Positions 6,351 to 50,175 of a stretch of 64,000 nucleotides of DNA are shown one piece after another. The stretch comes from Podarcis pityusensis (Eukaryota), in assembly GCA_964106645.2 (NCBI GenBank), contig OZ067040.1, one strand, 5' to 3'. The translations under genes and the position numbers were made by a program. The notes under the pieces are model-generated. The model was not told the DNA's origin. It saw only the letters and a list, made by a program, of their open reading frames with translations, and searched no databases. Each line of letters opens with the position of its first letter. Positions within the stretch are counted from its first letter, which is position 1.

Positions 6351-7227
6351 CTAGAAAAATAGAAATGAAACTAATTACACTGCAGATCAGTTGATAAAGG
6401 AAGTTAGGCAAGTTAAATACAGAATTGGTTTTTTTAAAAAATACAAAGCTTTTTTCCTAGAGAATTGGGGCAGCAAGAAACTTCTTTAATTACAAAAACA
6501 AAAAGCCTTGGGTGCCATGTTTCTGGGAGGATCCATGACTACCAAAGGCAGTTTCAACCTGAGATATACATTCAGTCTCTTGAATCTCAGCCAAATCACA
6601 ATTAAACATAGAAAGTTGGCTCCAGAGTTTCCATGAATTTTCAAATGTAGTCTTGGATGATGGTGGAGATAATTTTTGCCAGTTCCTCTTTTGTTCTGCA
6701 GCTTCCTGTGCTCTCCTAAAACCTGCTCTGAAGAGTTAGGAGACCCTCCAAAAAGTATGGGAGATTATGATAGGGGTTACAGGAGAAAGGAAGAATTGGT
6801 GAAAATTACCTCCTCCCCTCATCCAGATTGAGTGCAATTGTCCCCTCCTGCTGTTGTTCCCAAGTGCCTCTGACCCTGGTGCCTCTGACCCTGGAGATAT
6901 TAGTCATCATGATTAACTAGTCTTATTCTCTATGTATTTGTCTAATCACCCTTTAAAGCGATCTAAAGTACTAGTCAGATAGCCCATTACTATCATCCTT
7001 TGCAAGTTGAATGGCAACTGTCTGAAACAGACAATTAATCCCTTAATCCCAAGCAAGCAGTGCCAATAACGTCAACCAATATGCTACTTGCTGTTGAATA
7101 AAAAAGAAGATAAAGGGAAAGAAACAGGAAACGTACGGTTAGGTGATATACACCAGATAGATGTAACAATAAACTAAGCAGAGACTCCTGTAGTTCACAA
7201 ATCTATATGCATGACACAAAAGTTCAA

Positions 7228-7438
7228 ATATATATAAAAATTTGTCCAGTAGCACCTTAGAGACCAACTAAGTTTGTTCTTGGTATATGCTTTTGTGTGC
7301 AAAAGCGTGAAGAAGTGTGTATGCACACAAAAGCTTATACCAAGAACAAACTTAGTTGGTCTCTAAGGTGCTACTGGACAATTTTTTTATTTTTTATATA
7401 TTTCGACTGCGTCAGACCAACACGGCTACCTACCTGAA
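7228..7438. mobile_element. Penelope-like element remnant with inverted (fold-back) pLTR segment
   Basis: ~65-bp inverted arms GTCCAGTAGCACCTTAGAGACCAACT...; flanked by the 12-bp repeat ACAAAAGTTCAA (7216, 7439). Confidence 0.75.
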
Positions 7439-7502
7439 ACAAAAGTTCAAGTAAAGCAATAAAACAGTGGCATAATTAGAGTTACTAAAATGCTAAACTC
7501 AC

Positions 7503-7715
7503 AGTGTACAAGTCCTGCATTTCTGATCTTGTAGTGCTTATGTCTTTCTTTTTAGGTTTTTTTGTTGAAAGTTTGGCAAACGCTCGAACTGCTGATGATA
7601 ACAGACCATCTGACCACTCCACTGTATTAGGATTTGTCTGCCCAAAAAGTTCACCAAGACTAACACACTTTGGGTTTATAACAAAGGTGTCTACCTTGCC
7701 TTTCTTTGGAGAATT
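7503..7715 (-). CDS. DNAH14: DNAH14 coding exon 38 (INPKCVSLGELFG...EWSDGLL)
   Basis: NPK...ELFG...EW.DG motif; 71 codons. Confidence 0.93.
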
Positions 7716-7866
7716 CTAAGGAAAGAAAAACAGACATTTCCTTACCATAAATATCCTGTTTTGGGGATGACATTCAAAAACTCTTTAGAGTTACTCCTCC
7801 CCACCAGGAGGAGACAGGGCTGGCTTGCTATTTGATTCTTCTGTTGGACTAAACTGGAATGAGCAG

Positions 7867-9767
7867 GGACTTCCGGGTTGGCGCCTCTGGCAATGGCGGA
7901 TTTCCTCCGATCGGGAGGAACCCGCTCCGTGAAAAACAGGGTCTGAACCGCCACGGCGAGGCGGAGACCCATTAAAAACCACAGGCGGGAGAAGCCTGTG
8001 GACTTGGGATTCGGCTGGCACCTTTGCGCCTCCCCTACTCGTGGGGAAACCCTGTTTTGGGGATCCGGAGCGACGTGGGGTGAGTGGCGCGGTGCTTTGA
8101 ATCGACTGCTTCTTTCACGGAGTGAAGCCGCATTGCTGTTGCCAGAGAGCGCTGACTTTTTCCTGTGGACAATTGGATTTTAAACAACTACTCGTGAGTA
8201 AAATGGAAAATTGGATTTTTAAATACTTCAATTTGGCACTGAAACGGGAAGGTTATAAACAGGAAGTCCACCTCCCGTTTTTGTAAATAGACAAGCAAAG
8301 ACGTTACAAGTAAAGCCTTTGAAAGCTTTTGGCAAAGGATCAAATTTCCACCGGTTTAAAGCTACAAAACCCCCTTAGGAAGCAGGAGAAGAGGGGGGAA
8401 ATTTTGGATCTAGTGAGCCTGCAGGAGAGAGTGAAAAAATCAAATTACCACTGCTCTGAACCTGGGAACGGGCTGCCAGATGACGTTTGGAGAGAGTGCT
8501 TTTGACAGAACGGATTTGACAGCTAGCTAAACAAGAGTAAGATACTGTTTCCATTGTCCCTTTCTGCGTTTAAAAAAAAAGAGGAAAAGTAACTGAAATT
8601 TTATCTTTAATGTTTGAAATTGTGCTTGAAAGAACTGATACAAGTGGAGACTGTTTCCCTCTAGAGGGAGCTTTTGAAACTGTAACAGGACTGTAACTGG
8701 GGAATTTCCAGCTGCAGAAAAGGAGTTTGGGAACCAGAGAGCGACCTTGGACTATTTAAAAATGTTGATAGGAGAGGCCATTGTGACTGTTTTATGTAAG
8801 ATAAGCTGTTCGCTGGGACAGCTTCACAAGAAGATGGATGAAATGACTCTCAAAGTTGATAATTTGGAACAGAAAGTGACCAACTTGAGTAAAAAAGCGA
8901 ACACTAAAACAGAAATAATTCAGGACTTGGTACAGGAACCCATTTTGGCAGGACAAATGGTGGAGGAGAAGGAGGAGAAGGAGAATGCAGCTGTTGTTCA
9001 ACATAAAATAATACAAGTGAGATCTGTGGATTTACAGAAGCAAATTGGAGATTATAAATTGAGGCCTTCTATGATTGAATCCAGGAAAAGCCAGACTCCG
9101 AGGAATGGATCCCGGTTTGGATTAAAGAAGGAAAGTTGGAAAGAGCCCTCTATGCAGGGATTAACTGACTTTTGGGACATGGACTCGGGCCTGGAGGAGA
9201 TTGAAGTTTTGGGGGCCTTTGGAATTGGAGGAATTTTGAAATATACCCTGAAATACTTTATGGACTGTAGTTTTAACTATGGAAATTCAGCTGATTTGTT
9301 CAGAAGGAAGAAAAAGATTAACAGGTTGGAATTTCCCCGAGATTGGCTCTTTAGCATTAAAGAAAATGAAGAAGACCTGCAGAAGGGACTTGGAAAAGAG
9401 TTAAGAGCCTCGGACATAAGATCACCAGGTTGATGGACTTTATGGAATTGACAGAAAGGACTGGCAGAATCCGAAACCTGGGAGAGGAGATGGAAACAAG
9501 GGAATGAAAGATAGAGCATGGAAAAGAGAGGATGTATGTTTTTAAATTGTTTTTGTTTTGGGGAGTGGGGTTTGTTTAGTTTAGCTTAATGTGTTTAGTT
9601 TTGAGTTTAGGTTGTGTTTTGTATTGTTTATATATTGTATTGTATTGCGTGTTTTTTTCTCTCTCTCTCTTTGTTTTTTTTCTTTGTTTTTTCTTCTGTT
9701 TTTTCTCTTTTGCTTTTTCTCTCTCTTTTTGTAATCTATAAAATTAATAAATATTATTAAAAAAAAA
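7867..9767 (+). mobile_element. Non-autonomous L1-derived retroelement (HAL1-like), full length
   Basis: 12-bp TSD TGGAATGAGCAG (7855, 9768); GGACTTCCGG...CAATGGCGG 5' end; CpG-rich 5'UTR; one ORF; AATAAA at 9746 followed by A9. Confidence 0.8.
8762..9433 (+). CDS. 223-aa ORF of the L1-derived element (ORF1-like, predicted coiled coil)
   Basis: First in-frame ATG at 8762; heptad-like LHKKMDEMTLKVDNLEQKVTNLSKK; no RT motifs. Confidence 0.5.
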   Translation: MLIGEAIVTVLCKISCSLGQLHKKMDEMTLKVDNLEQKVTNLSKKANTKTEIIQDLVQEPILAGQMVEEKEEKENAAVVQHKIIQVRSVDLQKQIGDYKLRPSMIESRKSQTPRNGSRFGLKKESWKEPSMQGLTDFWDMDSGLEEIEVLGAFGIGGILKYTLKYFMDCSFNYGNSADLFRRKKKINRLEFPRDWLFSIKENEEDLQKGLGKELRASDIRSPG

Positions 9768-10224
9768 TGGAATGAGCAGAAACTTCCTCCAGAATATAGA
9801 TAACTATTGAACAGCCAACCAGCATAAATGGACAGTTTTTGCTGACAATCACTTGTCAAAGCAAAGTTAGAGGTGGGCACCACTCAATAAATTTGTTTTC
9901 TTGATTATTATGTATTACATTTCTCTCATATGGAAGTGTGACAATGTATTTTCCTTTCATTCCTGATACCTTGAACGCTCTTATGGTGAATTATGCAAAG
10001 ACAGGATGTTTGCAACAGGATGTTTGCAATAGGACGTTTGTAAAATGTTTTTATTTCATTTTGCAATACAGGTGGTGACTATTTTAGGCACGTCCAACTG
10101 ATGTGCAATCTCCGACATACAGGTCCTTTTGGACCTGAAAGAGGGCAGAATAGGGGCAGGGCGGCATGTAACAGGACGGAACGGGGCACCCTTATATGTG
10201 CTCCACTGACACAAGCATGGGCTG

Positions 10225-49311: not shown

Positions 49312-50175
49312 CCGTATTTTTCGCTCCATAGGACGCACTTTTTCCCCTCCAAAAATGAAGGGGAAATGTGTGTGCGTCCTATGGAGCGAATGCAGGCTTT
49401 CGCTGAAGCCTGGAGAGCGAGAGGCATCGGTGCGCACCGACCCCTCTCGCTCTCCAGGCTTCAGGAAGCTATCCGCAAGCCTTGCAAGCCCGGTGGGAGT
49501 TCCCGCGGGCTCACAAGGCTTGCAGGCAGCAGCCTGCAGCCCCGGCGAGTGTCCGCAAGCCTTGCGCGCCCGGCAGGAGGTCCCGCCGAGCGCGCGAGGC
49601 TTCGGGCGGCAGCTTGAGTGTCTGCAAGCCTGGCGCGCACGGCAGGAGGTCCCGCCGAGCGCGCGAGGCTTCGGGCGGCAGCTTGTCGCCCGAAGCACGG
49701 GGAGCCCTCCGGAGGGCTCCCCGTGCTTCGGGCGAGTGTCTGCAAGCCTTGCGCGCCCGGCAGGAGGTCCCGCCGAGCGCGCGAGGCTTCGGGCGGCAGC
49801 CTGTCGCCCGAAGCACGGGGAACCCTCCGGAGGGCTCCCCGTGCTTCGGGCGAGTGTCTGCAAGCCTTGCGCGCCCGGCAGGAGGTCCCGCCGAGCGCGC
49901 GAGGCTTGGGGTGGCAGCCTGTCGCCCGAAGCACGGGGAGCCCTCCGGAGGGCTCCCCGTGCTTTAGGCGAGTGTCTGCAAGCCTCGCGCGCCCGGTGGG
50001 AGGTCCCGCCAAGCGCACGAGGCTTGGGGCGGTAGCCTGCAGCCCGAAGCAAGCGAGGCTTGGGGCGGCAGCCGCGGCGGGGGGGGGGGGAAATAATTTT
50101 TTTTATTCATTTCCCCCCCCAAAAAAACGAGGTGCGTCCTATGGGCCGGTGCGCCCTATAGAACGAAAAATACAG
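49312..50175. mobile_element. Tc2/pogo-type MITE with an internal palindromic GC-rich array
   Basis: TA|CCGTATTTTTCGCTCCATAGGACGCAC ... GTGCGCCCTATAGAACGAAAAATACAG|TA. Confidence 0.88.
49547..50040. repeat. Minisatellite: one 69-bp unit plus ~3.6 x 118-bp units
   Basis: GAGTGTC(T/C)GCAAGCC recurs at 49547, 49616, 49734, 49852 and 49970. Confidence 0.92.

Follow-up and report, generated by a model that had tools for sequence, protein, structure and literature searches.

Half-L1 (HAL1) elements are known from mammals (Smit 1999; Bao and Jurka 2010; both as cited in the accessible parts of PMC5753468, PMC5786205, PMC3627910 and PMC8535693). The long preservation of their ORF has been used as an argument for a functional HAL1 protein (PMC3627910, in the part consulted). 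How Pol II mRNAs such as those of HAL1, SVA and processed pseudogenes obtain the L1 ORF2p in trans is treated as an open question in the relevant section of PMC11260458, and so is whether these mRNAs must pass through ribosomes.

The element described here occupies positions 7855-9779 of the window, that is, the whole stretch of 64,000 nucleotides of Podarcis pityusensis DNA that was analysed, and is best filed as HAL1-type. It has no ORF2 with EN and RT, as an autonomous L1 would have; it is an L1 with an internal deletion, both ends kept and no EN or RT sequence, it carries an open ORF homologous to ORF1p, and it belongs to an amplified family with a common junction, a poly(A) end and target site duplications (TSDs). 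It resembles mammalian HAL1 in combining an L1 5'UTR, an ORF1-derived frame and an L1 3' end without EN/RT, in occurring as dispersed TSD-flanked copies and in a frame maintained over long periods. It differs in its host, a lacertid-type lizard with relatives labelled Podarcis lilfordi, and in an ORF that has been internally gutted, with half or nearly all of the RRM gone. The usual state of HAL1, a full ORF1p domain set under constraint, was not found: RRM and CTD carry deletions and omega is as in dead copies, so that the ORF drifts like theirs, whereas HAL1 ORF1p is thought, in the portions of the literature seen, to be needed as a protein.

Other systems share single traits with it. As in lizard L1 clade 1 (from the part of PMC5381506 consulted), the 5'UTR is long and starts with GACTTCCGG...ATGGCG, and the parent lineage has such a start; the element differs in lacking ORF2 and in a spacer between the two 5' motifs that exceeds that of the anole consensus in length. 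HeT-A and Ag-Sponge are likewise non-autonomous LINEs with an ORF1, but they belong to other LINE clades and their proteins are thought to multimerise with those of a partner (PMC5786205, in the section consulted). The model of Alu association with ribosomes offers a further likeness, in that a parasite RNA may gain ORF2p there; Alu RNA, however, is non-coding, is made by Pol III and docks through SRP9/14 (PMC11260458, same section), while for the present element the link would be its own translation. A literature search, with the primary HAL1 paper, Repbase and Dfam outside its scope, returned no lizard half-L1 and no frame-only selection in HAL1. Bao and Jurka reportedly described faster ORF1p evolution in HAL1, and part of our finding of protein drift may be anticipated by the primary HAL1 paper. 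The window copy is laid out as follows.

7855-7866, strand not applicable: left TSD of the element, 12 bp, TGGAATGAGCAG
7867-8761, + strand: L1-derived 5'UTR with putative internal promoter region, 74-75% identity to the parent L1 5'UTR
8194-8664, + strand: candidate 5'UTR intron, with donor-like GTGAGTA at 8194 and acceptor-like CCCTCTAG ending at 8664, motifs conserved
8762-9433, + strand: ORF1p-derived ORF of 223 codons, its start being an internal Met of the parent ORF1
8762-9091, + strand: coiled-coil remnant of ORF1p, about aa 1-110
9092-9232, + strand: first half of the RRM region, followed at 9232/9233 by a 126-nt (42-codon) in-frame deletion; boundaries set by the known ORF1p domain order
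9233-9361, + strand: CTD remnant, followed at 9361/9362 by a 51-nt (17-codon) in-frame deletion specific to the family of the window element
9368-9433, + strand: ORF tail, last 21 codons plus stop, purine-rich and unstructured
9429-9493, + strand: ORF2 remnant (last ORF2 codons, out of frame), joined to ORF1 as TGATG
9493-9494, strand not applicable: point of a deletion of about 0.27 kb confined to the window copy
9494-9767, + strand: remainder of the 3'UTR, with AATAAA at 9746-9751 and an A-tail of 9 A at 9759-9767
9768-9779, strand not applicable: right TSD of the element, 12 bp, TGGAATGAGCAG

The signals that the earlier note had read from the sequence, namely the 12-bp TSD, the 5' motifs, AATAAA and the A-tail, were all located at these sites. 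TGGAATGAGCAG occurs in the window only as the two flanking copies, the element starts with GGACTTCCGG at 7867, and the YY1-like motif CAATGGCGG lies at 7891-7899. The start of the leader is CpG-rich as claimed (observed/expected 0.72-0.88 over 7800-8199), and four short uORFs begin in the 5'UTR, with ATG at 7893, 8203, 8480 and 8610. The open 223-aa ORF and its stop/start overlap TGATG (9431-9435) are both present. Elsewhere in the window, positions 49464-50051 consist of tandem 118-bp units that are GC-rich and contain inverted repeats.

We found 35 other near-full-length copies with 95-98% identity by a DNA search of the genome (40 of 7422 candidates scored), a number well above chance expectation, and in a protein search all matches listed were at least 87% identical (150 of 9350 candidates scored). 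A 32-nt pattern across the ORF1/ORF2 junction, searched with at most one mismatch, gave 571 genome matches against none for the control; these are mostly members of the family of the window element (hereafter A), plus some sister-family copies. Copies with their own TSD of 8-19 bp made up 24 of the 29 examined, a set that includes one locus (L009) with the same flanks and TSD as another (L008) and probably a haplotype duplicate in the assembly. The prediction of a transposing multi-copy family with a common junction and individual TSDs was borne out, and a single-copy origin does not fit the junction matches and near-full-length copies. A processed pseudogene of a host gene was rejected as well, given these junction matches and the alignment of the whole element to L1 in pieces. 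The window element is confirmed as a member of a non-autonomous half-L1 (HAL1-like) lineage. It had also been called complete at 1.9 kb, which it is not: the family measures about 2.17 kb, and in each of the 29 other copies 260-286 further bases follow the position equivalent to 9493. The private deletion has GG at both break ends. The supposed 26-codon remnant reaching 9507 is indeed ORF2-derived over 9429-9493, but its last codons arise from that deletion. In two other loci (L048 and L024), internal or flanking pieces of the element are inverted or duplicated.

A parent L1 lineage, found starting from RT-bearing loci, is present in the same genome; it has the ORF1 plus ORF2 layout and a 5' start like that of lizard L1 clade 1. 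Its ORF2 ends ...KLMDYMELAEMTGRIRDQGEESVEEDWKKF..., in agreement with the suggestion that the remnant resembles reptile L1 ORF2 C-termini. Alignment of the full-length parent copy L072 with the element yields four blocks, with identities of 74% in the 5'UTR, 65% in the first half of ORF1, 84% in the ORF1 tail and 75% in the ORF2 end plus 3'UTR. The part of ORF2 that matches the parent comprises only its last 42 codons or so, out of frame. Compared with a profile of parent ORF1 (12 sequences from 20 loci, eight having been dropped for an unmatched start motif or a deviating length), the element ORF matched with a probability of 100 and an E value of 1e-47, so its descent from L1 ORF1p, one half of the proposed "divergent ORF1-like or novel protein", holds, and the protein is not novel. 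Relative to the parent, the ORF is missing about 50 N-terminal residues, 42 RRM codons and 17 CTD codons, and the C-terminal 50 or so residues of parent ORF1 are also absent. The element is an internally deleted L1 without EN/RT coding sequence and, as had been proposed, a member of a lizard non-autonomous L1 family.

Structure prediction gave the parent ORF1 a confident coiled coil, and the top nine Foldseek matches of this model were L1 ORF1p structures, at weak E values of 0.05-0.27. The element ORF, modelled from a shallow alignment, reached a pLDDT of 40, with a predicted helix broken after residue 57. Pfam returned nothing above the cut-off for the element ORF, three parent ORF1s and three sister ORFs, with weak coiled-coil matches only, and PF02994 had no match in the genome, where the control was unmatched too. 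A single-sequence homolog search with the element ORF found no match; the profile search found five related proteins, including Podarcis lilfordi entries. ESM Atlas matches, at 0.88-0.91, are leads only, and the parent profile, run as a sequence search against the PDB, retrieved generic coiled coils. One Podarcis lilfordi entry (P0004), annotated as a hypothetical host protein, is a more diverged open ORF of the lineage that shares its C-terminal end. Together with the occurrence of 0.31-0.47 of the sampled words in large runs coded as four organisms, the Podarcis lilfordi proteins point to a lacertid lineage.

Three sister families, B (2.0 kb), C and D (both about 2.1 kb), were found as insertions in L1 loci and then sampled by DNA search. 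The internal start, the junction and the stop are common to A, B, C and D; further in-frame deletions occurred in B, C and D, leaving almost nothing of the RRM in B, and the coiled-coil part is retained in all of them. Of 120 loci, 116 allowed the ORF to be delimited, and in 90 of these it is open. A subset of 91 copies was sampled by DNA irrespective of ORF state, with the probable duplicate and the query copies excluded; the ORF is open in 67 of them, that is, in most copies. The 16 stops and nine frameshifted copies of this subset are all private, except for one stop position found in two copies. B, C and D together contribute 65 DNA-sampled copies; 48 of these are open, with an amino-acid identity of 41-56% to the window ORF. 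None of the four families has kept the adjacent ORF2 remnant intact.

Indels tell the same frame apart from its surroundings. Between families, all 21 indels in the ORF are triplets (10 family pairs), against five of 68 in the 5'UTR (nine pairs), pairs sharing events in both counts; in a 5'UTR alignment, six of 37 shared gap runs are triplets, and three parent-to-family alignments of the ORF hold a few non-triplet gaps, which sum to triplets. Some 640 substitutions fell on branches with at least five descendants. On source branches, 27-40 nonsense changes were expected and none was fixed, while five multi-hit codons could have passed via a stop. The tree was built from open copies only, which makes the absence of stops on internal branches partly a matter of construction; the non-circular support for a kept frame comes from B, C and D, which were recovered through DNA similarity and whose copies are mostly open. 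We conclude that the frame has stayed open from start to stop through a long evolution, purged of fixed stops and frameshifts.

Its amino acids, meanwhile, drift about as freely as in dead copies. Missense and synonymous changes number 314 and 169 on source branches, and 239 and 116 among private post-insertion mutations, which also include 13 nonsense changes. Measured across copies, as the earlier note had advised, the relative dN/dS (omega) of source against private changes is 0.90 (CI 0.67-1.21), compared with 0.29 (0.22-0.39) in the parent. Codon ML gave omega values of 0.22 for the parent, 0.67 for source branches and 0.70 for terminal or small-clade branches, the last two being indistinguishable (p=0.69). 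An omega of 1 was rejected for source branches (p=2e-5); as the mutation-type-matched estimate is 0.92, we read the values below 1 as a model bias common to dead copies. A mild constraint on the protein is possible, with the CI extending down to 0.67 and the coiled coil at about 0.80 against 0.95. Sites invariant in the parent are not spared in the element families (0.88 vs 0.81), the mean BLOSUM score of changes is -0.45 on source and -0.42 on terminal branches against +0.19 in the parent, and no domain departs from the terminal baseline of omega. On source branches the ORF body changes faster than the UTRs, and in families A-D the sense strand shows a strong preference for C>T and T>C over G>A and A>G. 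With no detectable conservation of the protein sequence, the earlier emphasis on an element that carries a protein was likely misplaced.

Our preferred explanation, which we consider fairly likely, is that the element arose as a half-L1 by internal deletion and is copied in trans by L1 ORF2p, its frame being kept for translation and not for the protein. A kept frame with drifting amino acids suggests that selection probably acts on translation as far as the fixed stop. That the gene is selected purely as a ribosome track, translation itself determining capture by L1 ORF2p, we would put at slightly better than even. The source copies would be transcribed by Pol II from the retained 5'UTR, as established L1 biology leads one to expect, and, to judge from the selection pattern, translated through to the fixed stop. 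Translation would thereby cross a purine-rich, conserved stretch of 60 nt and end about 0.5-0.6 kb before the poly(A) tail. Full translation may protect the RNA from premature-stop decay and keep it in the pool of poly(A)-bound RNAs undergoing translation, where it might acquire ORF2p. Mobilisation in trans, suggested by TSDs and A-tails, would follow through target-primed reverse transcription, the ORF2p and probably also the ORF1p being borrowed. Pol II transcripts also need ORF1p (PMC2666806, in part), and UPF1, found in L1 particles, affects L1 RNA (PMC8535693, in the section seen). Against decay avoidance stands the absence of stops from the last 80 codons as well (about 11 expected), since such avoidance should be weak there. 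The explanation as a whole is also weakened by the spread of an ORF-less family (described below), by human HAL1-like reporters, which need functional ORF1p in cis (PMC11260458, in the part consulted), and by the absence of an intact ORF2, as a source of ORF2p, from the 40 parent-lineage loci examined. Other L1 families of the genome have intact ORF2 frames of 1241 and 1261 aa.

The reading expected from the literature (parts of PMC5786205 and PMC3627910) is that of a classical HAL1, in which a truncated ORF1p works in cis under very relaxed constraint, for example through a coiled coil that co-assembles with the ORF1p of a partner L1 and tethers the RNA. It would accommodate the purging of stops and frameshifts, as well as a coiled coil kept in all families at a slightly lower omega. 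Yet the omega of that coiled coil is like that of terminal branches (0.78 vs 0.87, p=0.58) and it gained nine prolines on source branches against six on terminal ones; together with the deleted RRM, the unspared parent-invariant sites and, more weakly, the poorly predicted, broken helix, this makes us regard the reading as unlikely. It is more doubtful still that only the C-terminal peptide of about 21 residues, or termination exactly at TGATG, matters, with the remainder serving as an in-frame spacer. The same stop is used in all families, including two Podarcis lilfordi proteins and one Logan protein, a TGA to TAA change in family C keeps the stop-start overlap, and the tail shows 17 missense changes where 39.5 were expected. 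Synonymous changes are equally depleted, though (7 vs 17.4), which at these small counts points to the RNA or to sequence homogenisation instead of a peptide; both types are depleted about 2.4-fold on source lineages and little on terminal branches, and no stable RNA structure was found at the tail or junction in 12 copies (z -1.3 to +2.2).

Stops might also be purged if short products made of the coiled coil alone poisoned the partner L1 in trans, as fragments of human ORF1p that retain the N-terminus along with the coiled coil suppress L1 (PMC5605252, in part). That effect, however, needs the N-terminus and an intact coil, and here the first is deleted and the second drifting; moreover, a cost in trans would be borne by every copy equally and give no selection against the mutant one, so this reading seems very improbable. 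An open frame by chance or sampling, with no selection, deserves mention because the window copy was picked as open, a protein search supplied 20 family-A loci, and only open copies went into the tree. The mostly open B, C and D copies, recovered by DNA similarity at their low amino-acid identity, and the confinement of triplet-only indels to the ORF largely refute it, and we give it hardly any credence.

The 5'UTR holds further conserved signals. The donor-like CGTGAGTA (8194-8200) and the acceptor-like CCCTAG (8657-8664) are conserved across divergent 5'UTRs, the same splice-like motifs being found in families B-D, in parent L1s, in an L1 nested in locus L128 and in the L068 family described below. 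Splicing of the candidate intron would remove three of the four uORFs of the window copy. No spliced genomic copy of family A was found, and no spliced joint appeared among the matches listed from contigs of presumed RNA runs. A drop in depth at the donor was seen also in a large run (X14) taken as DNA by its size, and therefore reflects sequence conservation.

The L068 family, represented by L068 (insert 6353-8054, + strand) and L181-L195, is young, 1.69 kb long, TSD-flanked and 97-99% identical among its copies. Its 5' end is about 70% like that of the element, the 3' two-thirds have no match among the L1s compared, and no ORF exceeds 68 codons; it is apparently an undescribed ORF-less L1-type parasite. 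Of 15 copies, 14 are full-length and 13 have a TSD. The spread of this family in the same genome implies that not every L1-type parasite here depends on a long frame.

These results extend half-L1 elements to squamates, where ORFs of this kind enter annotations as hypothetical lizard genes, as in Podarcis lilfordi. Selection on translation rather than on the protein would depart from the accepted HAL1 model, and the kept frame carries a warning: the preservation of an ORF over long periods in a mobile element is not, taken alone, proof that its protein functions. The lizard families are a natural experiment in which translation can be told apart from protein function.
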